Assembly: GCA_965213925.1 (NCBI GenBank)
Contig: OZ243927.1
Coordinates: 2,112,001 to 2,176,000, forward strand
Length of the DNA: 64,000 nucleotides
Source: Trueperaceae bacterium
GTDB taxonomy: Bacteria > Deinococcota > Deinococci > Deinococcales > Trueperaceae
Direction: 5' to 3'
The position numbers and the translations under genes are program-made. Each line of letters opens with the position of its first letter. Position 1 is the stretch's first letter. Shown piece after piece: positions 14,505 to 64,000 of this stretch. The notes beneath the pieces are model-generated. The model worked only from the letters and a program-made list of their open reading frames with translations, was not told the DNA's origin and did not search any database.

Positions 14505-14534
14505 TTTACAAATCTCCACCGCAAAAGGTAGCAT
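14505..14534 (+). promoter_or_regulatory. Putative sigma70-type promoter for the amino-acid ABC operon
   Basis: TTTACA-18 nt-TAGCAT, about 90 nt upstream of the ATG. Confidence 0.45.
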
Positions 14535-14622
14535 AGTGTAGCGAGGGGAAAACTTCACATGACCCAGAGATGCGGTCGCTACGATTTAATCTCTAAACCT
14601 GGGTCACTCTAAAGGAGAAAAT

Positions 14623-42537: not shown

Positions 42538-42553
42538 CTCTTCAGTGTACGAC

Positions 42554-42706
42554 TTAAAGCCGCCTTAACGCCTCATCCATCTCGACGTTACCGGAGAGGA
42601 TTTCGAAGATTTTCTTAGAGGTGTAGCCTGTACGTAAGGTTTCCACCGCGACGAGGGCAACATTGGAGCCGGTCCGTCCATTTGCGCCTACGACCAACAC
42701 TGCCAC
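42554..42706 (-). pseudogene. Internally deleted NAD(P)-binding (YhfK/NmrA-like) gene, 50-aa in-frame relic
   Basis: AAGGAGGT SD and GTG start; MAVLVVGANGRTG (GxxGxxG) joined directly to NVALVAVETL...KKIFEILSG...DEAL. Confidence 0.65.
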
Positions 42707-42821
42707 TAGACCTCCTTAATAGTTTCTTGAGTTTAGGTAAGAATACCCGAGAGAAAGGGTGAATGAGCGTTATATTTGGAAAGTTATGGTTCAATGTTCG
42801 CACTGGAAAGGCAACTTGCTT

Positions 42822-44219: not shown

Positions 44220-44608
44220 GAGACTACAGTCAGGTCAACCTCTCTCAACGCTTCGCCTAAAACAAATCCTCTCACTATCCCAAGCTGAGGTACAATAATG
44301 AGGTGCACCGCGTCATAGTGCGCCTCTTTTACGTCTATTTCTGAAGGCGTTTGTCGCCCGTTCGGGTGTGAGTGATAGACGGCTAAGAGGTCATCGCTTT
44401 TAACCTCTGCCTCTCGCAAGGCTACAAGAATCTCAGTGGGATCAGCAAAGTAACGAGTCGGAGTCTCAGCGATATTCGTTAGTGGGACACGCCTTTTAAC
44501 CCTATCATCCTGTCCAAAGAGCAAGCCGACGCACTCGTTAGGCAGCGCGGCGCGAGCGTGCTCCAAAATGTTCTCAACCATCCTTTGCGAGAGGTAAAGT
44601 CTATCCAC
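44216..44608 (-). CDS. JAB/MPN (M67) metallopeptidase
   Basis: PNECVGLL and JAMM motif YHSHPNGRQTPSEID. Confidence 0.9.
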   Translation of the reverse strand: MDRLYLSQRMVENILEHARAALPNECVGLLFGQDDRVKRRVPLTNIAETPTRYFADPTEILVALREAEVKSDDLLAVYHSHPNGRQTPSEIDVKEAHYDAVHLIIVPQLGIVRGFVLGEALREVDLTVVS

Positions 44609-44611
44609 ATC

Positions 44612-52250: not shown

Positions 52251-53123
52251 ATGAGCACCGCCGCACCGCAACCCCGCCGCAAGGGTCTAAAAACCTACCT
52301 CTCGTTTGTCAAATTCGAGCACACCCTCTTCGCGCTGCCTTTCGCCTACGGCGGTATGCTCTTAGCGGCGAACGGTTGGCCCGGCGTGGCAACGTTTCTC
52401 TGGATCACGCTGGCGATGGTCGGCGCGCGCACGGCGAGCATGGCGCTTAACCGCGTGATCGACGCGGAGATAGACGCGCGCAATCCGCGCACGAAAGCGC
52501 GCGAGATTCCTAGCGGCGTGCTGCGCAGGCGCGAGGGCGTGTGGCTCGCGGTCGCCGGTTTCGCGCTTCTCATCCTCTCCGGCTGGGCGCTCAACGCGCT
52601 CACCCTGGCGCTCCTCCCCGTCGCGGTGTTCTTTTTAGCGCTTTATCCCTACACCAAGCGCTTCACGTGGCTTTGTCACTACTGGCTCGGTCTTACGATC
52701 GGGGCGGCGGCGGCGGGCGGCTGGATCGCGGTAACGGGCGCGTTTGCGCCCGCTGCTGTGGCGTTCTGGGCGGGCGTCGGGCTGTGGATTGCGGGCTTCG
52801 ACATCATCTACGCGGTGCTCGACTACGACTTCGACGTGGCGCACGGGGTCTACAGCGTTCCGGCTGTATTTGGCGTGGATAACGCCCTCGCTATCTCTGC
52901 CCTTACGCACACCTTGGCGTGGTCCATGCTCGCGTTAGTCTTGCCGCTCACGGAGATGGGCTGGCTCTACGGGCTCGGTTTAGCGGTCGTGGCCGCGGTT
53001 CTCGCGCTGCAACACCTTCTGGTCCGCAAGGGAGAGGTCGGCGCTACGCTCCGCTCCTTTAACGCCAACCTCTACGTCAGCGCTGTGATGCTGCTAGCTA
53101 TCCTTGCAGATATCATTATCTGA
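52251..53123 (+). CDS. UbiA family prenyltransferase (MqnP-like)
   Basis: KFEHTLFALPF, NRVIDAEIDARNPRT, YPYTKRFT and GFDIIYA motifs. Confidence 0.88.
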   Translation: MSTAAPQPRRKGLKTYLSFVKFEHTLFALPFAYGGMLLAANGWPGVATFLWITLAMVGARTASMALNRVIDAEIDARNPRTKAREIPSGVLRRREGVWLAVAGFALLILSGWALNALTLALLPVAVFFLALYPYTKRFTWLCHYWLGLTIGAAAAGGWIAVTGAFAPAAVAFWAGVGLWIAGFDIIYAVLDYDFDVAHGVYSVPAVFGVDNALAISALTHTLAWSMLALVLPLTEMGWLYGLGLAVVAAVLALQHLLVRKGEVGATLRSFNANLYVSAVMLLAILADIII

Positions 53124-53162
53124 GAGACTTTTCCCATCTCACCTACACTGAAAGAGGTCACA

Positions 53163-53603
53163 GTGCGCTACGTTTTTTCAACCCGCCAGGAGGACTTGAC
53201 ACGCTACCGCTTCCCGACGCATATCAACGACTTGGTGTTGGATAGAGCAGAAGCGGCCACCTCAGAAGTCTTCGTTGTTGTCTTGGACGAGGGCGAGGCT
53301 CCGCCGCTGCATCAGCACGACGATACGGAGCAGGTTTTTTATATACTCGAGGGGCGCGGCAGACTCACGATTAGGGGAGAGGAACATCACGACCTCTCAC
53401 CTAGTGACGTGGTGCTCATCCCGCCCAGCACACCGCACTCGGTGGAGGCGGTGGGAGGCAAGTTGCGCTACTTAACCGTGGACTGCTTTTTAGGAGGTCG
53501 CCCCGAAGCGGAGCCGACCTGGGAGAAGCACGTCGAAGTGATGTGCCGTGAGAACGGCTGGGACTTGGAGCGTGTTTTGGCGGAGGCGAATAAGAAGCAA
53601 TGA
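53163..53603 (+). CDS. Cupin domain protein
   Basis: PPLHQHDDTEQVFYILEG...IPPSTPH motifs. Confidence 0.88.
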   Translation: MRYVFSTRQEDLTRYRFPTHINDLVLDRAEAATSEVFVVVLDEGEAPPLHQHDDTEQVFYILEGRGRLTIRGEEHHDLSPSDVVLIPPSTPHSVEAVGGKLRYLTVDCFLGGRPEAEPTWEKHVEVMCRENGWDLERVLAEANKKQ

Positions 53604-53729
53604 GTTAAAAGCAACCCAGTCATACCCGCTTGCGCAGCTAGCGGGAGCGGTCCACGCGACGCACAGGGCTGGGCGAACGGCGAGCAATGAGTCCAACCTT
53701 TTCACTTTTAACTCGTTGCTCATTGCTCA
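53596..53729 (+). repeat. Heptamer-based composite element (AGCAATG type), copy 2
   Basis: Homologous to 36791-36918; its ends contain the stop codons of both flanking convergent genes. Confidence 0.75.
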
Positions 53730-54719
53730 AAAACTGAGGTTATGTTTAGCTCGGTAGTCCTCGAGCAACCTATCCACGACTTTAGCGGTACGTAAAGCGC
53801 TCTCGCCGGTGCTCGAGCACTCTCCTTGACCCGTCAAGGCGTCCACGACCTCCTGAATGAGTGGCTGCTGCACCGTCTCGGGATAGGGTGCCTCGATGAC
53901 CTCTTCGCCGTCACCCGTCGTGAGATGGAGCGGGCTGCCGTCGAACGAGGCGAAGCGCAAGCTTCCTTTTGAACCGATCAAGTTGACCGAATCGACCTCT
54001 TGCGTGCCGCTAAAACACCACACACCCATACCCTGAACGCCCGACTCGAATTCGAACGCGGCGCTCACGATATCCTCGGCGGGGTAGCGCCCTGCTTGGT
54101 TAGCGGCGAAACCTGTGACTTTAGCAATGGGTCCGAGCATCCAGTCCAGAAAGTCTAAGGTGTGTGAGCCCATGTCCACGAAGTAGCCGCCGCCGGAGAC
54201 TTCGGGGCGTACGCGCCAGGGAATGTCGCCTACGTCCGAGGGAGACGCGGAGAGTTGCAGCCGCACCTCAACCGCCCTCACTTCACCAATCGTTCCCGAA
54301 TCCAACATCTCTTTGATTTTGACGAAGCGCGGCATCGCCCGCCGGTAGTAGGCGACGAAGAGGGGTACGCCCGCATCCTTACACGCCGCAATCATCGCCT
54401 CGCACTCTTCCGCTGTACGCGCCACCGGCTTCTCGACGTAGACGGGTTTACCCGCCGCCGCAACTTGTAGTGTGTAGTCGTGGTGTGAGTCGGGCGGGGT
54501 GGCGATGTAGACGGCGTCCACGTCAGGGTCATGGATAAGTTTGTCGGCATCGTCGTACCACTTAGGGACGCCGTGACGCTCGGCGTAGTCCTTTACTTTA
54601 TCTGTAGAACGCCGCATGACGGCGACGAGTTCTGAACGCTCCGCTTGCTGAAAGCCGGGTCCGCTCTTTTTTTCCGTCACGTCGCCTACTCCGATAATGC
54701 CCCAACGCACCTTATCCAT
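53727..54719 (-). CDS. Gfo/Idh/MocA family oxidoreductase
   Basis: WGIIGVGDV, YIATPP, VYVEKP and DMGSHTLD motifs. Confidence 0.92.
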   Translation of the reverse strand: MDKVRWGIIGVGDVTEKKSGPGFQQAERSELVAVMRRSTDKVKDYAERHGVPKWYDDADKLIHDPDVDAVYIATPPDSHHDYTLQVAAAGKPVYVEKPVARTAEECEAMIAACKDAGVPLFVAYYRRAMPRFVKIKEMLDSGTIGEVRAVEVRLQLSASPSDVGDIPWRVRPEVSGGGYFVDMGSHTLDFLDWMLGPIAKVTGFAANQAGRYPAEDIVSAAFEFESGVQGMGVWCFSGTQEVDSVNLIGSKGSLRFASFDGSPLHLTTGDGEEVIEAPYPETVQQPLIQEVVDALTGQGECSSTGESALRTAKVVDRLLEDYRAKHNLSF

Positions 54720-54779
54720 AAGTCGCTCCTTTGTAGAGGTTAAAGTAGCATATGTTCGCAAGGTGGCAAAGGATTTCGC

Positions 54780-55562
54780 ATGGTGAATAGAACTCAGGCT
54801 GAGGAGGCGTCACCTCGAGCCGGTGGGATGTTAGGTAAGGGTCTAAACCTCCTGACCCTTTTAGGCAACTATCCAGACGGCGTCGCCCTGAGCGACCTCG
54901 CGGCGGAAGCGGGCTTGCCGACCTCGACGGCGTACCGGCTCCTCGGTGCGATGGTCGCGCACAAGTTCGTGACGTTTGACCCCGCGACGCGCTGCTATCA
55001 GTTGGGGCTCAAAGTCTTCGAGTTAGGGCATCAGGTCTCTTCGGTCAAAAGTCTGGTTGAAATCGCGACGCCCGCCATGCAGCGGCTCGCCGACGTGACG
55101 CACGAGCTGATTTCGCTCGCAGTTTTGGAGCATCACGAGATGGTCATCTTGAAGCGCATCGAGCCCAAAGAGCGGCTGCACATTAAAGCGTACGTGGAAG
55201 GGCGCTTCGCGCTGCACACGACCTCTTTAGGAAAGTCGCTCCTAGCGTACATGCTCGAGAACGAACGCGAAAAGGTCCTTCAAAACCTCACCCTCACCCG
55301 GATGACCGAGCGCACGATGACCGATTTGGGCGCGTTGCGCGAGGAGCTTAGGCGCACCAGAGAGCGCGGTTACGGCATCTGCGACGAGGAGAACGACGTG
55401 GGCATCCGGGCGGTGGGCGCGCCGATTTTGAACGCCCAAGGGCGGGTGCAAGCGGCGCTCTCAGTCGCGACCTTGACCTTTCGGCGCTCGCTCTCAGACT
55501 TAGAGCAGTTCGTGCCTGACGTGCAGGCGGCGGCGCGTGAGGTCGGGGTGCAGCTTCATTAG
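54780..55562 (+). CDS. IclR family transcriptional regulator
   Basis: GLPTSTAYRLL HTH, TSLGKSLLA and GYGICDEE...G..AVGAPI motifs. Confidence 0.93.
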   Translation: MVNRTQAEEASPRAGGMLGKGLNLLTLLGNYPDGVALSDLAAEAGLPTSTAYRLLGAMVAHKFVTFDPATRCYQLGLKVFELGHQVSSVKSLVEIATPAMQRLADVTHELISLAVLEHHEMVILKRIEPKERLHIKAYVEGRFALHTTSLGKSLLAYMLENEREKVLQNLTLTRMTERTMTDLGALREELRRTRERGYGICDEENDVGIRAVGAPILNAQGRVQAALSVATLTFRRSLSDLEQFVPDVQAAAREVGVQLH

Positions 55563-55841
55563 GCTCGAGGGGGGGCGTTTTTTTCTCGAGTGGCGTGCAA
55601 CATATATCCTCAGCATGATTCTTTCGCTACCTGCGGTTCGCTGACCCCTTTTGCTATCCAAACCACAGTTTATCTCACCCGAGATACTGCCCCGCCACCT
55701 TGAAAAAGTCGCAAGAAGTCATATCGTTTCAATAGGGTAGAGGGAGTGCGCGGCGTAGGGGCACATAATTTATTACTGTATGAATCGTCCCTACTGCATT
55801 TGCCTCCTTCTGTGACTTTTTCAGTGAGGTCCACCAATACC

Positions 55842-55910
55842 TTGACGCCGCCTCGAGAGATACGCTACACTCGACCTACATCATAAAAAGAGTTTTCACA
55901 TGGTGGAAAA
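55842..55910 (+). promoter_or_regulatory. Putative promoter and IclR-type operator of the TRAP operon
   Basis: TTGACG-18 nt-TACACT, followed by the imperfect palindrome ttttcacatggtggaaaa (55893-55910). Confidence 0.55.
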
Positions 55911-55982
55911 AGTGCTGGAAGCCACCAGGCGAAAACGGCTGGCGGGTCGCACGCGGCGGCGCTGGCATTTCAGGAGGTAGGT

Positions 55983-56960
55983 ATGAAGCGGATCGTCGGT
56001 ATCGTCTCTGTCCTGTTACTGAGCACGCTGAGTATGACCTTTGCGCAGGAGTACACGCTCCTCGCCGGGCATCAGCTCGCTGCTGGCACGCCTTTCGACC
56101 AAGGGCTTATCCGCTTCGCCGAACTCGTGGAGGAGAAAACGGACGGGCAGGTCACTGTGGAGGTCAATTCAGGCGGAGCCATCGGCAGCGAGTTGGAGAT
56201 GTTTGAAGGGATGACGGTCGGCACCGTGGACGTGGCCGTGGTCGCGCCGAACTCCATCGCCGAGTTCGTCCCCGAAGCGACGATTCTCTCCATGCCCTTT
56301 TTAGTCGACAGCCGCGAGATGCGCGACCAGGTCATCGAGAGCGAAGCATTCCAACAAGTTGCCGACCTCATTCAAGAGCAGACCGGCGTCGAGGTCTTGG
56401 GCGTCTTCGGCGGCGGCATCCGCAACATGTTCTTCACCGAGTCGGTGGAGAGCGTGGAGGGAATGCAGGGACGGCGCTTCCGCGTGCAGCCGAGCAACAT
56501 CTTGACGGATTCTTTTAGCGCGGTCGGCTTAGAGCCCACCGTCGTCGCCTACTCCGAGCTTTACAACGCGCTCGCGCAAGGCGTCGTGTCGGGCGCGGAA
56601 AACGAGTCGGTGTACGTCTTGTCGCAAGCCTTTTACGAGCCCGCGCCCTACTTGCTTCAGACGCAGCACGAAGTCACCATTCGCCCCCTCGTCATCAGTG
56701 GCATGACACTGGACCGGCTGCCGCCCGAACTCGCGGACGCGGTGCGTGAGGCGGGCGCGGAGGCGTCGGCGTATGCCAGAGAGGTCGAAGCAGAAGCCGA
56801 TGACGCCGCCTTACAAGAACTCCAAGAGGAGCACGGTATGACGGTCTATGAGATCGACACCGCGCCGCTTATCGAAGAGGTGCAGCCCATCTGGAGCGAG
56901 TACGCCGAGCAGTGGGGGCTCACGGACGTGTTAGAGCAGATCACCGCGCTGCGCCAGTAG
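55983..56960 (+). CDS. dctP: TRAP transporter substrate-binding protein
   Basis: Signal peptide; FRVQ (conserved Arg) and ELYNALAQGVVSGAEN motifs. Confidence 0.92.
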   Translation: MKRIVGIVSVLLLSTLSMTFAQEYTLLAGHQLAAGTPFDQGLIRFAELVEEKTDGQVTVEVNSGGAIGSELEMFEGMTVGTVDVAVVAPNSIAEFVPEATILSMPFLVDSREMRDQVIESEAFQQVADLIQEQTGVEVLGVFGGGIRNMFFTESVESVEGMQGRRFRVQPSNILTDSFSAVGLEPTVVAYSELYNALAQGVVSGAENESVYVLSQAFYEPAPYLLQTQHEVTIRPLVISGMTLDRLPPELADAVREAGAEASAYAREVEAEADDAALQELQEEHGMTVYEIDTAPLIEEVQPIWSEYAEQWGLTDVLEQITALRQ

Positions 56961-56963
56961 CCC

Positions 56964-57509
56964 GTGAAGCGCCCCCTTGACCTTTTACAAACCGCGCTGG
57001 CTGGTCTCATGACCAGCCTCCTTTTGCTGTTTACGGTGGTGGTTTCCTACCAGGTCCTCGCCCGCTACGTCGGCTTCGTGCCCCGCGCGCTCTGGACCGA
57101 AGAGGTCGCCCGCTACGCCTTTATCTGGATGCTCTTTGTGGGCTCGGCGATTGCGGTGCGCACGCTTTCGCACTTCACCATTGACCTCTTGCCGAACCTG
57201 AGCCCACGTGCGAACAAAATTGTCAACGTCATCGTCGCCTTGCTCATGCTCGCGGTTGCGCTCCTTATTCTTTTTGGCGGCGTCCGCTTTTCGCAAATTG
57301 GCATGAACCGCGTCTCGACCTCTTCGGGAATCCGGCTAGGCTACGTGTACATGGCGCTGCCGGTGTCGGGGGCGGCGATGGTAGTGTTTTTGCTCGAGCG
57401 CCTCGTCAACGTAGTCCAGGGTAAAGAGCTAGAGAACAACCCCGACGCGGTGAGTGAAACGGACGTCAAGCAAACTCCTGAGTCCCAGAAGAACGAAGGT
57501 GAACCGTGA
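56964..57509 (+). CDS. dctQ: TRAP transporter small permease
   Basis: QVLARY, WTEEVARY and HFTID motifs; four TM segments. Confidence 0.9.
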   Translation: MKRPLDLLQTALAGLMTSLLLLFTVVVSYQVLARYVGFVPRALWTEEVARYAFIWMLFVGSAIAVRTLSHFTIDLLPNLSPRANKIVNVIVALLMLAVALLILFGGVRFSQIGMNRVSTSSGIRLGYVYMALPVSGAAMVVFLLERLVNVVQGKELENNPDAVSETDVKQTPESQKNEGEP

Positions 57510-58777
57510 CCGAAGCGCTCGTCCTGCTCGTGAGCTTCCTCGCGCTCATCACCTTGCGCGTGCCTATCGCCTTTGCCCTGCTGCTGTCGGGCTCCCTCTT
57601 CTTCTTCTTCGAAGACCGCTTGGTTCCCTGGACCATCACCCAGCGCATGTTCTCAGGTGTGGACTCCTTCGTCATCTTGGCCGTGCCTCTTTTCATCCTC
57701 ACAGCCAACATCATGAACGAGGCGCAGGTGACGAGCCGCCTCATCCGCTTGACGATGGCGTTGGTCGGCGTGATTCGCGGCGGCTTGGGCATGGTCAACG
57801 TGGCGACGAGCATGATCTTCGCGGGCGTGTCGGGCTCTTCGACGGCGGACACGGCGGCGGTAGGCTCGGTGCTCATCCCGCAGATGACCAAGCGCGGCTA
57901 CGACAAGGAGTTCTCCGTCGCGGTGACGGCGTCATCGTCCGTCATTGGGACGATCATCCCGCCGTCCATTCAGATGATCTTTTGGGGCGCGCTCACCAAC
58001 ACCTCTATCGGCGCGATGTTTTTGGGTGGAATGATTCCGGGGCTGCTCATCGGTGGGGGGATGCTCGCGGTGGTTTACGTGACGGCGGTGCGCCAAGACT
58101 ACCCCACCGAAGACCGCATCGCGCTGAGCGAGGTTCGCGCTGCTTTCTGGGATTCGCTACTCGCTTTGGGCGTGCCCGTCGTCGTGATTGGCGGTATCAT
58201 CCTGGGTATTGTGACCGCGACGGAGGCGGCGGTGCTCTCGGTGCTTTACGCGCTCGCTTTAGGTTTATTCGTCTACCGCTCGATAGGCTGGCGCGACCTG
58301 CCGCGCATCTTCCGCGAAAGCGCCAACCTCTCGTGCTTGCCGCTTTTCGCGCTCGCGGCTGCCTCGGTCTTCAGCTTTCTCCTTGCGTACTACCGCATTC
58401 CGCGACTTTTAGGCGGCGCGTTGGAGGGCGTGCCCCTCGTCTTGCTGCTGCCCGCCATCGTCTTAGTCTGGCTCCTCATCGGCACGTTTTTAGACGCGCT
58501 GCCTGCGATGGTCATCATGATTCCGGTGCTCGCGCCGCTCGTGACCTCGGCGGGACTCGACCCGGTGCAGTACGGCGTGATCTCGGTGATGGCGCTGGCG
58601 TCGGGGCTGATTACGCCGCCCTACGGTTTGTGTCTACTGCTGTCCGCCTCGATTGCCGACATCCCGATGGCGCAGGCGATACGGGGATTATGGCCCTTCT
58701 TCTTGGTTATCATGAGCGTCATCGTGCTCTGTATGCTCTTTCCTCCCATCGTGACGTGGCTGCCTGGGCTAATGTGA
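57506..58777 (+). CDS. dctM: TRAP transporter large permease
   Basis: AVPLFIL, GVSGSSTAD, IIPPSI, TATEAA and ITPPYG motifs. Confidence 0.93.
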   Translation: MTEALVLLVSFLALITLRVPIAFALLLSGSLFFFFEDRLVPWTITQRMFSGVDSFVILAVPLFILTANIMNEAQVTSRLIRLTMALVGVIRGGLGMVNVATSMIFAGVSGSSTADTAAVGSVLIPQMTKRGYDKEFSVAVTASSSVIGTIIPPSIQMIFWGALTNTSIGAMFLGGMIPGLLIGGGMLAVVYVTAVRQDYPTEDRIALSEVRAAFWDSLLALGVPVVVIGGIILGIVTATEAAVLSVLYALALGLFVYRSIGWRDLPRIFRESANLSCLPLFALAAASVFSFLLAYYRIPRLLGGALEGVPLVLLLPAIVLVWLLIGTFLDALPAMVIMIPVLAPLVTSAGLDPVQYGVISVMALASGLITPPYGLCLLLSASIADIPMAQAIRGLWPFFLVIMSVIVLCMLFPPIVTWLPGLM

Positions 58778-58812
58778 GGGCAGTAACGAGCATGAAAGTG
58801 AGAGAAAAGGAA

Positions 58813-58868
58813 AAAGGACTGAGGACTGAGGTTAAAGTCTTTTCTTTCCTCTCAGTCCTCAGTCCTTT
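58813..58868. repeat. Heptamer-periodic hairpin (AGGACTG type), copy 2
   Basis: aaaggactgaggactgag/ctcagtcctcagtccttt, a perfect 18-bp stem. Confidence 0.75.
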
Positions 58869-58914
58869 GCACTTTTAGCTTATTTTTGCTTTCCCAGAAC
58901 GGCACGGTGCAACA

Positions 58915-60510
58915 TTGCGAAATATAAATAAACTCGTTGACGTAGCGGAAGTGGTAGCGCGGATTCCCGACGGGGCGACGCTGTCGGTGAGTGCCTCGAG
59001 CGCCTTGGGCTGCCCTGACAAGGTCTTGGAAGCGGTTGGCGCACGCTTCCGCGAAACGGGGCATCCGAAAGAGGTCACGAGCCTCCACCCCATCGCTGCG
59101 GGCGACATGTACGGCGTCCCTGGTATCGACCACTTAGCCCAAGACGGACTCTTGAAGCGCGTCATCGCCGGGTCCTATCCGAGCGGGCCGTCGTCTACGC
59201 CCTCGCCCGCAATTTGGCGCATGATTTTAGAGAACCGCGTCGAAGCGTATAATCTGCCGAGCGGCGTCCTCTACCACATGCACGGCGAGGCGGCGGCGGG
59301 GCGTCCGGGCGTGCTGACGAAAGTCGGGCTAGAGACGTTTGTAGACCCCTGCTTAGAGGGTGGGCGTATGAACGCCTGCACGACTGAAGATATTGTGGAG
59401 AGGCTCGAGTTCAAAAACGACACCCACCTCTTCTATCCAGCCATCCCGGTAGACGTCGCCATCATCCGAGCAACGACCGCCGACGAAGCGGGCAACCTGA
59501 CGGTGGAGCACGAGGGTGCGCCGTTGGGGGTTCTCGAGCAGGCGTTAGCGGCGAAGGCGAACGGCGGCACCGTCGTCGCACAGGTGAAACGGGTGGCGGC
59601 GGCGGGAACCCTGAACGCTCAAGACGTGCGCGTCCCCGGTGCACTCGTGGACTTCATCGTCGTAGACCCCGACCAGCGCCAAACGACGGAGACGGACTAC
59701 GAGCCCGCCATCAGTGGAGAGGTCAAGCGACCTCTTTCTTCGTTCGAGTTACCTGAGTGGAGTATAGAAAAGGTCATCGCCCGCCGCGCTGCTATGGAGT
59801 TACAGCGCGGCGACATCGTCAACTTAGGCTTCGGCATCTCGGCGCTGGTGCCGTATATTTTGCTAGAAGAAGGACTTCACGGCGCAGTCACCTGGGCGAT
59901 CGAGCAGGGCGCGGTGGGTGGCTTGCCGCTCCGTGACTTTCAGTTCGGCTGCGCCAGCAACGCCGACGCGCTCGTCCCGTCGCCCTTACAGTTCAACCTC
60001 TTTCAAGGGGGCGGCTTTCAGCGTGCCATGCTTTCTTTTATGCAAGTCGATAGGGAGGGCAACGTCAACGTCTCCAAGCTGAGCGCCAAGCCCCACGTCA
60101 CAGCGGGCGTCGGCGGCTTCATCGACATCACGCACAAGTGTCCGCACCTCGTCTTCAGTGGCACGTTCGCGGCGGGTGGCTTGAAAACGGAGTGTCGAGA
60201 CGGCGAACTGCGTATCGTACAAGAGGGCAAAGCGAAGAAGTTCGTCCCACAAGTCGAGCAGGTGACGCTGAGCGGTAAGCAAACTCAGTTAAAGGGGCAG
60301 CGCGTCACCTACGTGACCGAAAGGTGCGTGCTCGAGCTAACCCCCACCGGACTCGTAGTCACCGAAGTTGCCCCTGGAATCGACTTACAAAAAGATATTC
60401 TCAACCAAGCTGAAATCTCACTCGAGGTCAGTCCGAACATTAAAGAGATGGACGCTACACTTTTTCGTCAAGAGGTCTTAGGGGATGTTCTTACGAGGCG
60501 TTTGGGATGA
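58915..60510 (+). CDS. Acyl-CoA:acetate/3-ketoacid CoA-transferase (YdiF/Pct-like, fused family I)
   Basis: TKVGLETFVDP, IRATTADEAGN, VNLGFGI, AIEQG (candidate catalytic Glu), GNVNVS and YVTERCV motifs. Confidence 0.88.
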   Translation: MRNINKLVDVAEVVARIPDGATLSVSASSALGCPDKVLEAVGARFRETGHPKEVTSLHPIAAGDMYGVPGIDHLAQDGLLKRVIAGSYPSGPSSTPSPAIWRMILENRVEAYNLPSGVLYHMHGEAAAGRPGVLTKVGLETFVDPCLEGGRMNACTTEDIVERLEFKNDTHLFYPAIPVDVAIIRATTADEAGNLTVEHEGAPLGVLEQALAAKANGGTVVAQVKRVAAAGTLNAQDVRVPGALVDFIVVDPDQRQTTETDYEPAISGEVKRPLSSFELPEWSIEKVIARRAAMELQRGDIVNLGFGISALVPYILLEEGLHGAVTWAIEQGAVGGLPLRDFQFGCASNADALVPSPLQFNLFQGGGFQRAMLSFMQVDREGNVNVSKLSAKPHVTAGVGGFIDITHKCPHLVFSGTFAAGGLKTECRDGELRIVQEGKAKKFVPQVEQVTLSGKQTQLKGQRVTYVTERCVLELTPTGLVVTEVAPGIDLQKDILNQAEISLEVSPNIKEMDATLFRQEVLGDVLTRRLG

Positions 60511-61265
60511 CCTTGATTAGGCTCAAGCTTGGGCAAGTCGCCACCCTCACGCTGAACCGTCCCGACAAACTCAACGCCCTCACGGCGGAGATGTTAGACG
60601 AATTAGAGGCGCACCTCTTCGAATTGGAGCGTGACCAAGAGGTGCGCGCCCTGCTGCTCAAAGCGGAAGGACGAGCGTTTTGCGTCGGGGCGGACATCCA
60701 CGCCTGGATGAGTCTGGAGCCTTTAGAGATGTGGCGCGTTTGGACGCGGCGCGGACATGAGGTCTTTAGAAGGCTGGCGACGTTGCCGCAACCCGTCATC
60801 ACCGTCATTCAGGGCTATGCGTTCGGGGGCGGGCTCGAGCTTGCCCTAGCTGCTGACGTGCGTCTCGCTTCAGAAAGTGCGGCATTTGCGATGCCTGAAA
60901 CCGGCTTGGCGACGCTGCCCGGTTGGGGCGGGACGGAGCGGTTGCCTCAGCTTATCGGCGTGGCGCGGGCGAAGCAGATGATCTTCTCGGGTGAGCGGTT
61001 GGGTGCGGATAGGGCGGCGCAGTGGGGCTTGGTCAATGAGGTGCTGCCTGAAGCGGACCTTTCGGTTAGGGCCGATGAACTTGCACAGCGAATCGCGAAC
61101 AACGCACCTCTCGCGGTGCAGATGGCGAAGCAGATTCTTAACGGTGAGGCAGGCGGACCGCTGACCGAGGCGTTGGCAGGCGGCTTGAGTGCGTTTACGC
61201 AAGATGCCAAAGAAGGGCTCGACGCTTTCGCTGAAAAACGCCCGCCGAAATTCGAAGGGATATAG
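60507..61265 (+). CDS. Enoyl-CoA hydratase/isomerase family protein
   Basis: LNRPDKLNAL, AFCVGADI, GGGLELA and MPETGL; both crotonase Glu residues present. Confidence 0.9.
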   Translation: MTLIRLKLGQVATLTLNRPDKLNALTAEMLDELEAHLFELERDQEVRALLLKAEGRAFCVGADIHAWMSLEPLEMWRVWTRRGHEVFRRLATLPQPVITVIQGYAFGGGLELALAADVRLASESAAFAMPETGLATLPGWGGTERLPQLIGVARAKQMIFSGERLGADRAAQWGLVNEVLPEADLSVRADELAQRIANNAPLAVQMAKQILNGEAGGPLTEALAGGLSAFTQDAKEGLDAFAEKRPPKFEGI

Positions 61266-62378
61266 ATGATAGAGGCTCGAGCTTTACAAGAGCGTGCGGA
61301 GGAGGGGTTGGGGTTCGCCGCAAAGCAACTCCGCACCCTCATTACGAACCACCCCGACTTCTTCCCGCTCTACACCGAAAATGGCGAATGGAAGCATGGC
61401 AAAGAAGCCTGGACGCGCTGGTGCGACGGATTTTTAGCAGGGATGCTCTGGATTGCGGCGCGGCGTAGCGGTGACAAGTGGTGGCGCGAGCGGGCAGAGC
61501 GCTACTCGTTGCTGTTAGAAGACAGACAATATGACCGCGACGTACACGACTTAGGTTTCGTCTTCTGGTCGAGTTGGAAAAGGTGGCTGGACCAGACCGA
61601 AGATGAAAGGGAGCGCGAGCGAATCGACGCCGTTATCATCCAAGCGGGCAAGACGATGGGCTTGCGCTTCAACGAAAAGGGGAAGTTCCTGCGCTCGTTT
61701 GTCGCGCCGGAAAGCTGCTTTATCGACATCATGATGAACGTCGGGATCATCTTCTACGCGGCGCAGAGAGGTGGGGACGAGACACTTTATGATAGAGCGC
61801 TCTCGCACTGCCTCGCCACCCGTCGCTACCTTGTGAGAGGCGACGGAAGCACCGCGCATGAAGGGATTTTCGACCTAGATACGGGCGAGTTCTTGCGCCA
61901 ATCCACCCATCAGGGTTGGCGCGGTGATTCGTCGTGGGCGCGGGGCCAGGCGTGGGCGCTCTACGGGTTCGGCACGGCGTACACCTACACCCAAGACGAA
62001 CGCCTTTTAGATACCGCCAAACGCTGCGCCGACTTCTTCATCTCGCGCACGCCCGAGCACGGCGTCCCGCCGAACGACTGGGAGGAGCCTGACCCCGCGC
62101 AACCTTTTGAGAGTTCCGCTGCGGCAATCGCCTCGAGCGGCTTGTTGCAACTCGCTGAATTAACTGGAGAGACCCGCTACCGAGAGGCGGCATTACGTAC
62201 TTTAGACACCCTCCTCACCCCTGAATTCCTCGCCGTCGACACGCCCGGCTGGGAAGGTATCTTAAAACACGGCTCGTACCACGAGCGCAAAAGCTTGGGC
62301 GTGGACGAGAGCGTGATGTGGGGCGAGTATTTCTTCGTGGAGGCGTTGGATAAGCTGACGCAAGAGGTCGAGAGGTGA
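61266..62378 (+). CDS. Glycoside hydrolase family 88 (unsaturated glucuronyl hydrolase-like)
   Basis: WCDGF..G.LW, HDLGF, IDIMMN, THQG, WARGQAWALYGF, SSAAAIA and WGEYFF motifs. Confidence 0.9.
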   Translation: MIEARALQERAEEGLGFAAKQLRTLITNHPDFFPLYTENGEWKHGKEAWTRWCDGFLAGMLWIAARRSGDKWWRERAERYSLLLEDRQYDRDVHDLGFVFWSSWKRWLDQTEDERERERIDAVIIQAGKTMGLRFNEKGKFLRSFVAPESCFIDIMMNVGIIFYAAQRGGDETLYDRALSHCLATRRYLVRGDGSTAHEGIFDLDTGEFLRQSTHQGWRGDSSWARGQAWALYGFGTAYTYTQDERLLDTAKRCADFFISRTPEHGVPPNDWEEPDPAQPFESSAAAIASSGLLQLAELTGETRYREAALRTLDTLLTPEFLAVDTPGWEGILKHGSYHERKSLGVDESVMWGEYFFVEALDKLTQEVER

Positions 62379-62974
62379 TGTCAGAGGTATTTTCAAGGCT
62401 CGAGCAAGCCAAAATCGTCGGCGTGTTACGAGCTGATGCGGGAGCGCAAGACCAGGCGGAAGCGGCGCTGAAGGCAGGATTAGAGGTGTTGGAAGTCACG
62501 TTCTCCACGCCCAATGCAACCGACCTCATTCAGCGTCTGCGTGCCAATTATCCCGAGAAACTCATCGGTGCGGGGACGGTGCGAACCTTTGAGCAGTTAG
62601 AGCAGGCTGCTAGTGCGGGAGGGCAGTTTGCGGTGAGTCCGCATTTGGAGCCAAAGTTGATCGAACATGCTGCTACGCTTGACTTACCCTACATTCCCGG
62701 CACGTCCACACCCACCGAAATCGCAAGAGCTTTATCTCTAGGCTGCACCTTGCTTAAAGTTTTCCCCGTCCGTCCGCTAGGCGGCGTCGATTACCTGAGC
62801 AGCTTGCTCGGTCCCTACCCTGAACTCGAGCTGATGGTGACGGGCGGCGTCAAAGCGGAAGAGGTCGGTGCGTACCTGCGCGCGGGCGCTAAGGCGGTTG
62901 GGCTAGGGTCACTTTTCGCCTCTGACGCTGAAGAGACTGAGGCTCGAGTCCGACGCGTACTGGGCGCGCTATGA
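62378..62974 (+). CDS. eda: KDPG/KHG aldolase
   Basis: EVTF, IGAGTV, FAVSP, PGTSTPTE, LKVFP and TGGV motifs. Confidence 0.9.
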   Translation: MSEVFSRLEQAKIVGVLRADAGAQDQAEAALKAGLEVLEVTFSTPNATDLIQRLRANYPEKLIGAGTVRTFEQLEQAASAGGQFAVSPHLEPKLIEHAATLDLPYIPGTSTPTEIARALSLGCTLLKVFPVRPLGGVDYLSSLLGPYPELELMVTGGVKAEEVGAYLRAGAKAVGLGSLFASDAEETEARVRRVLGAL

Positions 62975-63384
62975 ACCTCAGCCGCCACGCTTCGCGCGGC
63001 TGAGGTTGCGCAGGAAAATGGCGTGGTGGTCGCACCCGAACTGCCGCGCGAAGCTGTGGCGGGCGCGGACAGCCTTCGAAAAGTGGACAGGTGCTTGCTC
63101 GAGCGGCGACGCAGACCCTCCTTCCCTTTGTCGATAGTCTTTTACTCAGCGCTCCTGCTGACTTGGAGGCGTTAGAGGGTAGCGCTGACGAACTGGCTGA
63201 ACGTCTACCTCTTGTATGCGTTAAGCGCGGCGAGCAAGGCTACACGGTTTATAAGGGAGGCTCGAGAATCGACTTTCCTCCCACGAGTGCAGACGTTGTC
63301 GGTACAACGGGCGCGGGCGAGCTTGCGAGTCGGGCGGCGGCTGCATCTGTCGCTTATAGAGGTGCAGTGCCCCCTCGAGGCTAA
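62971..63384 (+). pseudogene. Decayed PfkB-family (KDG kinase-like) gene
   Basis: Fragments in different frames: LRAAEVAQENG, PNCRAKLW (compare NYRxxLW), VCVKRGEQG and VVGTTGAGE (compare VDTTGAGD). Far too short for a complete gene. Confidence 0.7.
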
Positions 63385-63387
63385 CGT

Positions 63388-64000
63388 TCACATATTCGTA
63401 AACTGGTACGCCTCTTGAATCAGCTCGAGACTTCCCTTCGCCATCTCACCTGTCACCAGCGGGTCGCGCCCCTCGCGGATCGATCCGATAAAGTCCTGAA
63501 CGACGCGCTCATGGTTCGCGGTTGAAGTCTGTTTCGGGTCGGCGGCGCTGCTATCTGCCATGTCGCTCTCAGGTTTCGGTACGCCCGGCACGTCCCAGCG
63601 CACGATGCGCTCTCCCTCAATCCGCAACGAGCCCTCCGTCCCGCAGAGTTCAACTGTATGCGCGACGCCCGGCTTGCTCGCGGTCGTGCCGCAGATGGAG
63701 CCTAAAGCGCCGTTCTGAAACTCGAGCCCCACCACCGCCGTATCCTCGACCTGAATCTCTCGTGCTAACCTCTTGCTAAACGCGGCGACTCGCCCGACCT
63801 CTCCGAACATCCAGAGCGCCAAGTCCACCAGATGAATCCCCTGATTCATGAGTACGCCGCCGCCGTCGAGGTCTTTGGTGCCGCGCCACGCGGCCGAGTC
63901 GTAATAGTCCTGCCCTCGGAAGTAGGGCATGGTGATAGACAGGAGGACGGGACGCCCGAACGCGGCGCTGTCTACCGCGGCTTTGACCTCTTGGAAGAAG
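63388..64000 (-). CDS. Gfo/Idh/MocA family oxidoreductase (5' end lies beyond the window)
   Basis: WRGT..LDGGGVLMNQGIHLVD and VEDTA motifs; frame open to the window end. Confidence 0.88.
   Translation of the reverse strand, partial: FFQEVKAAVDSAAFGRPVLLSITMPYFRGQDYYDSAAWRGTKDLDGGGVLMNQGIHLVDLALWMFGEVGRVAAFSKRLAREIQVEDTAVVGLEFQNGALGSICGTTASKPGVAHTVELCGTEGSLRIEGERIVRWDVPGVPKPESDMADSSAADPKQTSTANHERVVQDFIGSIREGRDPLVTGEMAKGSLELIQEAYQFTNM

Follow-up and report, generated by a model that had tools for sequence, protein, structure and literature searches.

The window analysed here, a stretch of 64,000 nucleotides from a Trueperaceae bacterium, contains at positions 53163-64000 genes for a TRAP transporter, a CoA-transferase, a crotonase, a GH88 homologue and a KDPG aldolase. 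This raises the question of what a CoA-dependent enzyme pair does beside GH88 and Eda, and whether these genes belong together at all. An initial annotation had proposed an undescribed CoA-dependent unit for sugar acids.

Organization of the locus

Coordinates of the open reading frames and domain matches agree with the annotated gene order. The genes for IclR, DctPQM, the YdiF-type CoA-transferase, crotonase, GH88 and Eda all lie on the plus strand between 54780 and 62974. The IclR-family regulator (54780-55562; Pfam IclR_C 144 bits, HTH_IclR 49.6 bits) remained below the cut-off of every NCBIfam model that it matched (PcaR/PcaU 173.6, BhcR 173.3, KdgR 136.7). It is followed by a putative control region upstream of dctP (55563-55982, plus strand), in which sites resembling promoters and, at 55892-55936 between iclR and dctP, an inverted repeat of 15 nt were recognized purely as consensus matches. 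The ATG of dctP is preceded by AGGAGG. The solute-binding protein DctP (55983-56960; Pfam DctP 214.7 bits, NCBIfam TRAP_S1 201.8 bits at a cut-off of 50) carries a signal peptide, and the closest solved binding protein is 4nx1/4ovp (198.7 bits). The small permease DctQ (56964-57509; Pfam DctQ 105.5 bits) and the large permease DctM (57506-58777; Pfam DctM 358.1 bits, TIGR00786 383.5 bits at a cut-off of 268) complete the transporter. Sugar acids are a common cargo of TRAP systems.

The four enzyme genes are contiguous or overlapping, as had been annotated. The gene for a fused family I CoA-transferase of the YdiF/FadX/Pct type (531 aa, 58915-60510) overlaps by 4 bp with that for a crotonase-fold enoyl-CoA hydratase/dehydratase (252 aa, 60507-61265; Pfam ECH_1 201.7 bits). 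The latter is directly abutted (61265/61266) by the gene for the unsaturated glucuronyl hydrolase homologue GH88 (370 aa, 61266-62378; Pfam PF07470 40.9 bits at a cut-off of 26.6), which in turn overlaps by 4 bp with eda (62375-62974; TIGR01182 191.4 bits at a cut-off of 156, Pfam Aldolase 165.4 bits).

The operon is flanked by a PfkB kinase remnant and, as Pfam confirms, by a cupin and two Gfo/Idh/MocA genes. The single-domain cupin (146 aa, 53163-53603, plus strand; Pfam Cupin_2 57.4 bits) has quercetinase-type bicupins as best solved relatives (53.7 bits) and matches KdgF 5fq0 at just 26.6 bits. A possible role is that of an accessory isomerase or linearising enzyme, and the membership of the cupin in the unit is uncertain. 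The NAD(P) oxidoreductase Gfo1 (53727-54761, minus strand, divergent from iclR; Pfam GFO_IDH_MocA and C-terminal domains) is most similar to aldose-aldose oxidoreductase 5a02 (122.7 bits), and is a candidate reductase or oxidase for a ring-opened sugar acid. Its assignment as an orthologue of 1,5-anhydro-D-fructose reductase (AFR) was rejected, because AFR 2glx scores 105.3 bits. The second oxidoreductase, Gfo2 (63388-64000, minus strand, convergent, cut by the window end; GFO_IDH_MocA_C3 110.5 bits), has relatives of at least 40% identity in 4 of 47 class B loci, at no more than 10 kb from GH88.

The kdgK-like gene had been described as a relic, and this holds. The 97-codon reading frame at 63091-63384 (plus strand) matches only positions 206-258 of the 302 in Pfam PfkB (19.5 bits, below the cut-off of 25.8) and contains the degenerate motif VVGTTGAGE. 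Comparison with the kinase of locus L010 gave weak tblastn matches in two frames (E 0.015). Between eda and the convergent gene there is no space for the N-terminal part of a normal kinase, roughly 190 residues, and an intact kinase occupies the same position in locus L012 and in Embleya. The frame is a remnant, part of the C-terminal third of a PfkB gene of the KDG-kinase type. An intact PfkB gene at 568-1527 encodes a ribokinase (313 bits at a cut-off of 299.65). Since an intact KDG kinase is missing from the window, the pathway here may be incomplete or decaying. A domain scan of 66 window reading frames found no KduI domain and no short-chain dehydrogenase (SDR) reaching the KduD cut-off, in line with the annotated absence of kduI and kduD from the window. 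No polysaccharide lyase was found among these 66 frames or among 47 from four CoA-linked loci.

Sequence features of the enzymes

To judge whether the catalytic residues are intact, as had been claimed, we used alignments to solved structures, and the claim stands for all three enzymes considered. Residues 9-527 of the CoA-transferase match YdiF 2ahu (359.6 bits), and E330 aligns with YdiF E333. The protein resembles short-chain acyl-CoA transferases. Among solved structures, the crotonase comes closest to 3-hydroxypropionyl-CoA dehydratase 5zai (219.5 bits); the motifs GGGLELAL and AMPETG align with identical motifs there, so that both Glu motifs are kept. GH88 residues 13-366 match Bacillus UGL 1vd5 (E 1.9e-52), with D95 and D154 aligned to D88 and D149. 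We take D88 and D149 of UGL, E333 of YdiF and the Glu motifs of the crotonase to be the catalytic residues. In 81 of the 81 GH88 family members compared, the positions aligned to UGL W42, D88, F91, D149, H193, Q211, W219, R221, W225, Y338 and H339 are invariant. Q211 and R221 of UGL have a role in carboxylate binding. The invariant Asp pair, together with the equivalents of Q211 and R221, suggests that this GH88 expects a free unsaturated uronate. By eye, its N-terminus shows no signal-peptide-like hydrophobic segment. Eda matches solved KDPG aldolases at up to 126.8 bits.

Association of the CoA enzymes with GH88 in other genomes

Gene neighbourhoods were compared for the best 80 of 548 confirmed GH88 relatives, counting orthologues at identities of at least 50% for the CoA-transferase and at least 45% for the crotonase. 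The CoA-transferase (55-67% identity) stands beside GH88 in 20 of these 80 loci and the crotonase in 22; both are present in 18 and either one in 24. The CoA-linked loci among these best 80 span at least five phyla. In the GH88 tree, a split (SH-aLRT 97) separates a clade of 23 rows that includes the window from the remaining rows. The window's GH88 is sister to that of a Trueperaceae MAG, and the clade also contains Thermomicrobiota, Verrucomicrobiota, Actinomycetota and Chloroflexota. CoA linkage was seen in 21 of the 23 rows. Where at least 6 kb of upstream sequence was available, the CoA-transferase was present in 14 of 14 loci of this clade; eight loci with less than 4.4 kb upstream show no family I transferase. 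The context label changes 4 times on the GH88 tree compared with a shuffled mean of 21.7, and none of 500 shuffles was as low, a clustering that kinship also favours. Because the same enzyme association recurs in other genomes, the linkage of CoA-transferase, crotonase and GH88 is not a matter of chance.

The arrangement of the genes varies. The cultured actinomycete Embleya has the window's core order with an intact kinase: aldehyde dehydrogenase (ALDH), CoA-transferase, crotonase, GH88, Eda, PfkB and a GMC oxidoreductase. In four loci, divergent crotonase and CoA-transferase genes, a LacI gene and GH88 adjoin a peptide-type ABC system. Three of these four gave a tblastn match to a sulfatase, which was confirmed by Pfam, along with GH2, in L066 alone. 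In L060, the genes around GH88 are non-orthologous replacements and encode a family III CoA-transferase, an Fe-ADH, an ALDH and a PaaF-like crotonase.

Fuller clusters also carry GMC oxidoreductases, ALDH, a KDG-type kinase and an AFR orthologue. Within the 22 loci of the GH88 A clade, a sugar-type ABC binding protein was found in 13, a GMC_b/c oxidoreductase in 15 and an NAD(P) ALDH in 14. Taken together, they amount to an alcohol-to-acid sequence. The ALDH scores 481 bits with BADH, 477 with HpaE and 283 with the CoA-acylating MMSDH model, so that an MMSDH-type assignment was rejected. The best matches of GMC_b are FAD glucose dehydrogenase (141 bits) and fructose dehydrogenase. Genes for alcohol-to-acid oxidation are absent from the TRAP-fed window and from the four peptide-type ABC loci. 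Downstream of GH88, several loci encode a KDG/KDGal-kinase-like PfkB and Eda.

Two further observations concern the partners of GH88 and of the CoA pair. An SDR is present in 49 of the best 80 loci and an SDR with an OYE-like gene in 30, only 2 of which also have the CoA-transferase or crotonase. The CoA pair and the SDR (plus OYE-like) pair are thus almost mutually exclusive partners of GH88, and at a threshold of 90% the two GH88 clades are not told apart by any residue. Rhizobial clusters contain orthologous genes in the order LacI-AFR-CoA-transferase (61%)-crotonase (42%)-ALDH-ABC-GMC-SDR-GMC, together with a DHDPS-family gene and a glycerate kinase, and lack GH88. GH88 is therefore not always required by the CoA pair. 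In the plasmid collection, nine records matched GH88 at E ≤ 1e-40, none of them belonging to Rhizobium, Sinorhizobium or any other of the genera represented in the 15 listed CoA-transferase matches.

A possible route and its alternatives

Our preferred reading, held tentatively and at somewhat less than an even chance, is that the operon takes up an acidic sugar through the TRAP system and that the CoA steps precede GH88. From the gene content, the intact motifs and the three-enzyme linkage we infer the substrate, the order of the steps and each reaction. The substrate could be a hexuronate, a glycosiduronate or a 1,5-anhydro-uronate. Once imported by DctPQM, its C6 carboxylate would be converted to a CoA thioester by the CoA-transferase. 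Such a thioester is a 3-hydroxyacyl-CoA, with C5-H as the alpha and C4-OH as the beta position, on which the crotonase could act. Elimination of the 4-hydroxyl would give a 4,5-unsaturated uronyl-CoA, a 4,5-enol ether, and the transferase would pass the CoA on to the next substrate molecule, similar to CaiB/CaiD acting on carnitine. Once freed, the enol ether would be protonated at C4 by GH88, with water added at C5; the hemiketal would open, releasing any aglycone and leaving a 5-keto-4-deoxy acid. The Gfo/Idh/MocA enzymes, perhaps with the cupin, might convert this acid to a KDG-type acid, from which a kinase, locally a relic, and Eda would yield pyruvate and a triose. The crotonase and GH88 mechanisms are textbook chemistry. 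The CoA steps are placed first because dehydration of a uronyl thioester would produce the very enol ether that GH88 hydrates. In favour of the reading as a whole are the conserved linkage of the three enzymes, its independent arrangements, the GH88 residues expected for a free unsaturated uronate and the kinase and Eda genes downstream of GH88. In addition, no lyase source of an unsaturated uronide was seen in the scanned reading frames, and the supply of acid fits the transporter, with oxidation genes accompanying sugar-type ABC systems and absent from the TRAP-fed window and the peptide-type ABC loci. Against it speak the rhizobial clusters without GH88, the missing intact kinase of the window, the eight clade loci with short upstream sequence and no family I transferase, the generic appearance of the enzymes, which are related to short-chain acyl-CoA dehydratases and transferases, and the CoA and SDR pairs, which could be alternative routes downstream of GH88.

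The same alpha,beta-dehydration could instead act on an open-chain aldonate or aldarate, turning a 2,3-dihydroxy acid into a 2-keto-3-deoxy acid for kinase and Eda, with GH88 in a parallel branch of the regulon. This would suit the cargo of TRAP systems, the likeness of GMC_b to glucose dehydrogenase, which could form aldonates, and the rhizobial combination of the pair with ALDH, GMC, a DHDPS-family gene and glycerate kinase. We nevertheless consider it unlikely, because GH88 is left unexplained although it is translationally coupled between crotonase and eda and accompanies the transferase in every adequately flanked locus of the clade, and because no origin is offered for the unsaturated uronide, with no lyase seen in the window or the four CoA-linked loci scanned.

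Somewhat less probable still is the order of the initial annotation, in which GH88 is the first enzyme to act on unsaturated uronides that were made by lyases and imported, and the CoA pair then processes the product or its oxidised form in place of KduI/KduD. The near exclusion between CoA and SDR pairs, the identical active-site residues in both GH88 clades, the lack of kduI and kduD in the window and an ALDH that might act on the aldehyde group of the compound formed by GH88 all speak for this order. However, the 5-keto-4-deoxy product has no 3-hydroxyl beside an acidic alpha-hydrogen at its carboxylate end, and oxidation of C1 with dehydration at the other end would, on structural grounds, lead to a 2,5-diketo diacid, which is no substrate of Eda. 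Retention of the CoA pair without GH88 in rhizobia would also be unexpected, as would neutral-sugar ABC importers, GMC oxidoreductases and the AFR orthologue in clusters for unsaturated uronides.

A role of the pair in processing a small hydroxy or unsaturated acid (3-hydroxypropionate, acrylate or lactate type) that is freed as aglycone or substituent of the GH88 substrate is improbable. The 3-hydroxypropionyl-CoA dehydratase relationship and the YdiF/propionate-CoA-transferase type point in this direction, and GMC plus ALDH is reminiscent of the acrylate/3-hydroxypropionate route of DMSP degraders. On the other hand, the ALDH is of a generic NAD(P) type, the clusters scanned contain no further beta-oxidation or propionate genes, and the AFR orthologue, KDG kinase and Eda would have no role. 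Accidental adjacency of two modules, one for short-chain acyl-CoA and one for uronate, both built from common enzyme families and here without a kinase, is hardly credible given the recurrence across phyla in three arrangements with one non-orthologous replacement, and given the tree clustering, which kinship also favours.

Of the unit originally proposed, the tie of the CoA pair to GH88 and eda is upheld by the linkage; CoA steps after GH88 or on a released acyl group are judged less likely, as we found no route from them to an Eda substrate. A literature search returned nothing for uronyl-CoA names and no description of a CoA-dependent, GH88-linked sugar-acid unit, and we know of no CoA thioester of a sugar acid. 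The recurrence of the enzyme trio over several phyla points to an undescribed CoA-dependent opening of acidic sugars.

Gene content and control region of the operon

An ORF listing and family scans of the window returned the same genes, at the same coordinates, as the initial annotation had listed. On the divergent side of iclR lie a small cupin gene (53163-53603) and Gfo1, a Gfo/Idh/MocA oxidoreductase gene on the minus strand (53727-54761) that is divergent from iclR. The gene of the IclR regulator (54780-55562) is separated by an intergenic gap of 420 bp from dctP, dctQ and dctM, which follow in that order (55983-58777). Downstream are the genes for a family I CoA-transferase of 531 amino acids (58915-60510), a crotonase (60507-61265), a GH88 enzyme (61266-62378) and Eda (62375-62974). 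These four enzyme genes abut or overlap, and the overlap between the CoA-transferase and crotonase genes is 4 bp. Gfo2, the second Gfo/Idh/MocA gene, extends from 63388 to the window end and converges on the 3′ end of the operon.

The TRAP transporter is represented by its three components in order, and DctP carries a signal peptide for export. The closest solved binding proteins to DctP are 4nx1 and 4ovp, which we take to be hexuronate complexes (taluronate and mannuronate). An inverted repeat of 15 nt with 87% complementarity and a 15-nt spacer (55892-55936), located 47 bp 5′ of dctP, is a candidate IclR operator or small hairpin. Scanning of 53000-64000 revealed promoter-like sites 5′ of dctP and fewer terminator-like sites than in shuffled sequences. 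A scan of the same region for RNA elements gave one sub-threshold microRNA match.

Three further regions of the window were recorded. A UbiA-family prenyltransferase gene at 52251-53123 scores best against the MqnP model of the Deinococcus-Thermus type (379 bits, cut-off 430), which fits the Trueperaceae affinity of the genes in the neighbouring operon. The segment 19985-21722 has a GC content of 0.46, compared to about 0.59 for the window, and contains two small ORFs together with genes for an APH-family phosphotransferase and a protein with a BrnT-type toxin domain (91.6 bits). The segment was probably acquired as an islet that carries a toxin-antitoxin pair. At 41731-45892, a possible sulfur-carrier or ubiquitin-like conjugation set consists of closely spaced genes for a ThiF-family E1-like enzyme, a prokaryotic JAB-domain protein and a WD40 beta-propeller protein.

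Catalytic residues of the operon enzymes

The GH88 protein scores above the Pfam cut-off of its family (PF07470, 40.9 bits, cut-off 26.6). It aligns over nearly its full length (residues 13-366) with the Bacillus unsaturated glucuronyl hydrolase (UGL) 1vd5 (E = 1.9e-52), and streptococcal UGLs match with E = 4e-42. D95 and D154 align with UGL D88 and D149, and W49, F98, H198, Q216, W224, R226 and W230 align with UGL W42, F91, H193, Q211, W219, R221 and W225. We assume for the aligned residues the catalytic and −1 subsite roles known from the family literature, and the conserved residues include the counterparts of those that bind the carboxylate of the uronate in UGL. All UGL-aligned catalytic and −1 subsite residues are invariant in 81 of 81 GH88 relatives. 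The enzyme is predicted to hydrate 4,5-unsaturated uronides.

The transferase aligns with E. coli YdiF (2ahu) over residues 9-527 (359.6 bits). With its 531 amino acids, it shares with the group of YdiF, Staphylococcus FadX and propionate CoA-transferase the fused alpha-beta chain and the catalytic glutamate (E330, aligned with YdiF E333). With 359.7 bits against a cut-off of 750 for the FadX equivalog in NCBIfam, it is a member of this family and not a FadX equivalog, and its genomic partners are sugar enzymes instead of fatty-acid genes. The crotonase matches PF00378 (ECH_1) with 201.7 bits. Its nearest solved relative is the 3-hydroxypropionyl-CoA dehydratase 5zai (219.5 bits), with which both glutamate motifs, GGGLELAL and PETG, align; carnitinyl-CoA dehydratases are also among its solved relatives (114-125 bits). 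The crotonase reaches none of the equivalog cut-offs in NCBIfam, the best score being 219.8 against 363. For both enzymes, we take the identity of the catalytic residues from the family literature. Eda scores 191.4 bits against TIGR01182 (cut-off 156.05) and aligns with solved KDPG aldolases over residues 9-186. The catalytic residues had been described as intact, and this holds for the aspartate pair of GH88, the glutamate motifs of the crotonase and the glutamate of the transferase, all of which align. Judged by their sequences, GH88, transferase, crotonase and Eda look functional.

Kinase remnant and genes absent from the window

The 97-codon ORF at 63091-63384 matches positions 206-258 of the 302 positions of the PfkB model with 19.5 bits, which is below the cut-off. 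It carries 'VVGTTGAGE' at the site of the conserved C-terminal PfkB motif, as compared with what we take to be the consensus of this motif. Comparison with the cluster kinase of a related locus gave weak matches in two frames (E = 0.015). The window has no room for the N-terminal two-thirds of a kinase, and no intact KDG kinase was found in it besides this remnant. Intact PfkB genes of KDG/KDGal-kinase type occupy the same position after GH88 and Eda in three related loci (L010, L012 and L028) and in the actinomycete Embleya. Mainly the Pfam match and the motif point, if weakly, to a real kinase relic. The remnant thus agrees with the kdgK-like relic proposed in the initial annotation, and the reported lack of kduI and kduD was confirmed as well: among 66 ORFs of the window, there was no match to PF04962 and no SDR that reaches the KduD model. 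A lyase was likewise not found among these ORFs. Two candidates were rejected, a PfkB gene at 568-1527 considered as kdgK, which is a ribokinase, and an SDR gene at 2087-2863 considered as kduD, which is FabG-like.

The cupin matches KdgF (5fq0) with 26.6 bits, and quercetinase-type cupins score higher. Gfo1 scores 105.3 bits against the 1,5-anhydro-D-fructose reductase (AFR) 2glx. A Gfo gene of the related locus L010, in comparison, reaches 370.8 bits against 2glx and 364.6 bits against the AFR 4koa, the next family member following at 110 bits. By these scores, Gfo1 is not an AFR orthologue and the window contains none.

Linkage of GH88 with CoA-transferase and crotonase

The GH88 enzyme has thousands of relatives. 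Identity ranges from 69 to 88% among the best 120, of which the few with an organism name come from Thermomicrobiales. A single genome scan that began from a GH88 alignment of 27 relatives confirmed 548 relatives, and the best 80 of these 548 loci were taken with up to 10 kb of flank each. ORFs in the loci were greedy longest-ORF calls, sometimes on the wrong strand, and neighbour counts therefore rest on tblastn with the proteins of the window and of the loci. A CoA-transferase (≥50% identity) was found beside GH88 in 20 of the 80 loci and a crotonase (≥45% identity) in 22. At the same thresholds, both were present in 18 loci and at least one of them in 24. In one locus, from a Caldilineae MAG (L020, 10001-11110), the GH88 match contains one in-frame stop; this GH88 is either a pseudogene or the result of an assembly error.

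A second context was more common. An SDR gene was present in 49 of the 80 loci, and in 30 of these it was accompanied by a protein of about 480 amino acids that gives a partial match, over its first two-thirds only, to the Oxidored_FMN (old yellow enzyme, OYE) model. In these 30 loci, which lie within L008-L080, GH88 is directly followed by the SDR and OYE-like genes (for example L024, 2861-6303; L030, 10001-13407; L037, 9989-13449). The SDR passes the NCBIfam model PRK12745 with 332 bits, whereas its 156 bits against KduD are below the cut-off. Only two of the 30 loci (L035 and L069) also hold a CoA-transferase or crotonase. Neither context was seen in nine loci, among them six in which the flanks are very short and L060, which is treated separately below.

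In the GH88 tree (IQ-TREE quick search, LG+G4, 81 rows, SH-aLRT support only), a clade of 23 rows is separated from a clade of 58 rows with a support of 97. The smaller clade unites the window and its sister, the Trueperaceae MAG L001 (support 99), with Thermomicrobiota, Verrucomicrobiota, Actinomycetota and Chloroflexota. CoA-linked rows account for 21 of its 23 members, the other two being a 2.5-kb contig and L060. The transferase was found in all 14 clade loci that have at least 6 kb upstream of GH88, and in the eight clade loci that lack it, the upstream flank is shorter than 4.4 kb. The recurrent linkage of the CoA-transferase/crotonase pair (CoA pair) to GH88, which had been named as a check, was thus observed, with one or both genes present in 24 of 80 loci and the transferase in 14 of 14 adequately flanked loci of the clade. 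The context label changes four times on the tree, compared to a mean of 21.7 for shuffled labels, although kinship favours such clustering too. No residue separates the two GH88 clades at the 90% level among the 81 sequences, and the active-site residues are identical.

In the closest relative, L001, a tyrosine recombinase gene (Phage_integrase, 14037-14996) lies about 3 kb downstream of GH88. This gene and the mixed phyla of the GH88 clade suggest horizontal movement of the cluster.

Independent arrangements and fuller clusters

The CoA pair also occurs with GH88 in other arrangements. Four members of the 58-row clade (L064, L066, L071 and L077) form a subclade with divergent crotonase and CoA-transferase genes, LacI, GH88 and a peptide-type ABC system. 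A sulfatase was matched by tblastn in three of these four, and sulfatase and GH2 were confirmed by Pfam in L066 alone. At L060 (3030-13537), GH88 is surrounded by non-orthologous counterparts, namely a family III CoA-transferase, an iron alcohol dehydrogenase, an aldehyde dehydrogenase (ALDH), a HAD hydrolase, a ribose-type ABC system and a PaaF-like crotonase. The cultured actinomycete Embleya sp. NBC_00888 carries the order ALDH, CoA-transferase (42%), crotonase (40%), GH88 (54%), Eda, PfkB and GMC, with an IclR gene upstream; the core order is that of the window and the kinase is intact. Its locus (NZ_CP108785.1, 5219221-5248285) is on a 5.7-Mb linear record that is filed as a plasmid and has eight annotated features. 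As a cultured organism, Embleya is suited to testing the pathway. L060 and Embleya speak for a functional rather than a historical association of the CoA pair with GH88.

A Pfam scan of 47 ORFs in four CoA-linked loci, with the other loci assigned by similarity, gave the composition of fuller clusters. The typical order is LacI, Gfo/Idh/MocA, CoA-transferase, a Gluconate_2-dh3–GMC fusion (745 amino acids), crotonase, ALDH, GH88, a sugar-type ABC importer and another GMC, with a KDG-type kinase and Eda in some. Among the 22 loci of the window's clade, where short contigs make all counts lower bounds, we found an AFR-like Gfo in at least 9, ALDH in at least 14, the fusion GMC in at least 13, another GMC in at least 15, an ABC binding protein in at least 13, a kinase in at least 6 and Eda in at least 4. 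SDR was found in none of these 22 loci, and AFR, ALDH and GMC were each found in none of the 47 SDR-type loci. Judged from its scores (BADH 481 bits, HpaE 477, the CoA-acylating MMSDH model only 283), the cluster ALDH is an NAD(P) enzyme of generic type. Of the two GMC types, one exceeds the cut-off of the choline-dehydrogenase subfamily (608 versus 605), whose members oxidise primary alcohols, and the other has FAD glucose dehydrogenase and fructose dehydrogenase as its closest matches. No lyase was noted in the fuller clusters of the four CoA-linked loci. In the SDR-type loci, 60 large ORFs, mostly the longest ones and picked by eye out of 190 candidates, included one that is lyase-like, so that these loci are not obviously lyase-fed either.

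The rhizobial afr loci

In a protein search of a plasmid collection, 19 records matched the transferase with 60-62% identity, and the 15 matches listed all belong to Rhizobiaceae and relatives. On a S. meliloti replicon and a Rhizobium plasmid, the order is LacI, AFR, CoA-transferase, enoyl-CoA hydratase, ALDH, sugar ABC, GMC, SDR and GMC, with a DHDPS-family gene and a glycerate kinase gene nearby. Between this cluster and the GH88 clusters, orthologues share 35-61% identity. Among them are the rhizobial AFR (SMc04400), whose orthologue in the fuller GH88 clusters is the Gfo gene, and, from the neighbours of afr, the transferase (61%), crotonase (42%), ALDH (56%), GMC and LacI. In CP090106.1 (3655573-3681141) and CP021374.1, afr is followed by the CoA-transferase, crotonase, ALDH, ABC and GMC orthologues. 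Although labelled pSymB, the S. meliloti record has a length of 3.7 Mb, and its genes include some that appear under SMc numbers in papers.

In contrast to the GH88 clusters, the rhizobial afr loci lack GH88, Eda and PfkB; in their place stand genes for an SDR, a DHDPS-family protein and a glycerate kinase. Nine records of the plasmid collection have a GH88 match with E ≤ 1e-40, and none of them is from Rhizobium, Sinorhizobium or another genus of the 15 listed transferase matches; how often the CoA pair occurs without GH88 was assessed in this collection only. The window, on the other hand, has no GMC and no ALDH gene, and the AFR orthologue that stands beside the CoA pair in at least 9 of the 22 loci of its clade is absent from it.

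PMC12542648 gives SMc04390-04392 as an L-sorbose dehydrogenase, an SDR and a putative dehydrogenase, and PMC4960864 cites earlier work in which the binding protein smc04396 was induced by dextrin. According to a 2025 review (PMC12441222), aerobic Rhizobiaceae convert 1,5-anhydrofructose to 1,5-anhydromannitol, which is then hydroxylated at C1 by an unidentified P450-like enzyme. The review also states that an oxidative pathway for 1,5-anhydroglucitol has yet to be described, and it lists the ring-opening enzyme of the oxygen-tolerant 1,5-anhydro-hexitol route as unidentified in 2025 (PMC12441222).

Proposed mechanism and alternatives

Our data support the view that the unit is an undescribed, CoA-dependent variant of uronate catabolism. 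The initial annotation had interpreted it as a CoA-dependent sugar-acid unit with conserved linkage, and this core stands; the order of steps is revised, with the CoA steps tentatively placed before GH88. In the largely open-access full-text literature, we found no paper that joins GH88 or UGL with a CoA-transferase or crotonase. Within the same literature, neither a uronyl-CoA name nor anhydro-sugar catabolism joined with these two enzymes was found.

The C6 thioester of a pyranose uronate would be a 3-hydroxyacyl-CoA, with H5 as the acidic alpha proton and the 4-OH as the beta leaving group. Dehydration of the crotonase type would give the 4,5-unsaturated uronyl-CoA, and the transferase would pass the CoA on to leave a free enol-ether acid, a textbook GH88 substrate. 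Hydration at C5 by GH88 would then yield a hemiketal, the ring would open and the substituent at O1 would be expelled. With a 1-deoxy (1,5-anhydro) substrate, the ring-opened product would carry CH2OH at C1. According to Fischer projections, the manno configuration set by AFR would lead from 1,5-anhydro-D-mannitol to exactly 2-keto-3-deoxy-D-gluconate (KDG). Bacteria of several phyla might in this way cleave glycosides and open the pyranose ring with neither a lyase nor a glycosidase of the classical kind, with C6 oxidised or the acid imported, a CoA thioester formed, the 4-OH eliminated and GH88 hydrating the product, and with AFR setting the manno configuration in the fuller clusters. We infer this mechanism as a whole and consider it the best explanation, though somewhat less likely than not; its broad form for several phyla and the fuller clusters is less probable still.

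This one scheme would account for the coupling of the CoA pair to GH88, for the retention of the carboxylate-aligned UGL residues in 81 of 81 GH88 sequences, and for a KDG kinase and Eda after GH88. It would also account for a GMC or iron alcohol dehydrogenase together with ALDH (alcohol to aldehyde to acid) in clusters with neutral-sugar importers; this alcohol-to-acid pair is missing from the TRAP-fed window and the four loci with peptide-type ABC systems. With KDG as the manno product, the AFR orthologue and the lack of an SDR reductase in the window's clade would be explained. The window, having neither AFR nor the oxidation genes, is expected to import a ready-made acid (hexuronate or uronide). 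Its own Gfo enzymes, and perhaps the cupin, would act on the aldehyde-bearing product, and the kinase would have to be encoded elsewhere.

Rhizobia run the CoA pair without GH88, which speaks against the full scheme. The pair must therefore also accept a substrate whose dehydration does not have to be followed by enol-ether hydrolysis. The simplest candidate would be an open-chain aldonate or aldarate, the enol of which would ketonise by itself. The CoA pair would then be a CoA-dependent sugar-acid alpha,beta-dehydratase, which is the broader and safer conclusion and also underlies the leading alternative explanation. We rate lower the order originally proposed, in which GH88 acts first and the CoA pair on its product. 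That the CoA pair and the SDR/OYE-like pair almost never occur together would fit two routes downstream of GH88, and the active-site residues are the same in both GH88 clades. However, we could not write a route from 4-deoxy-5-hexosulose uronate, or an oxidised form of it, via the crotonase to an Eda substrate, and this order leaves GMC, ALDH, AFR and the neutral-sugar importer unexplained. An acrylate/3-hydroxypropionate module has a low probability, given that the linked ALDH does not belong to the CoA-acylating MMSDH enzymes, although the nearest solved crotonase is a 3-hydroxypropionyl-CoA dehydratase.

Comparison with known systems and implications

The unit resembles the canonical pathway of UGL, KduI/KduD (DhuI/DhuD), KdgK and Eda in its GH88 with the full UGL residue set, in Eda and in the position of PfkB. 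It differs from the canonical UGL (GH88 or GH105) pathway in lacking KduI, KduD and a lyase within the window, in the translational coupling of the CoA pair to GH88 and in TRAP uptake; the kinase is a relic in the window and intact in relatives. In the carnitine system CaiB/CaiD, a CoA-transferase and a crotonase act on a 3-hydroxy acid and the CoA is recycled. By analogy, the window combines a CoA-transferase and a crotonase-fold dehydratase in one operon that may activate, dehydrate and hand the CoA on. The window transferase, however, belongs to family I (YdiF type) and not to family III, which was seen at L060 only, and the substrate would be a sugar acid; adjacency of the two genes is observed, whereas their sequential action would follow from the analogy. 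The unit is like the canonical pathway at its GH88 and Eda ends and like CaiB/CaiD in the middle, and belongs to neither.

The substrate of GH88 enzymes is generally taken to come from polysaccharide lyases. Like these lyases, the proposed route would deliver a 4,5-unsaturated uronate ready for GH88 by acidifying H5 next to the carboxylate. It would do so by a thioester inside the cell and without a lyase fold, in contrast to charge neutralisation in a lyase active site.

If true, the scheme would bring sugar-acyl-CoA chemistry into carbohydrate breakdown for the first time and would supply the missing oxygen-tolerant 1,5-anhydro-hexitol route. The enzymes are small, soluble and easily expressed, and a UV assay can check the prediction; the aerobic breakdown of 1,5-anhydro-fructose, -mannitol and -glucitol would become directly testable. 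The route would also introduce a new way in which uronides and cyclic sugar ethers are cleaved, with the enol ether made inside the cell, and would give a function to a widespread unannotated cluster of soil Chloroflexota, Verrucomicrobiota, Thermomicrobiota, Deinococcota and Actinomycetota and, in part, of rhizobia.
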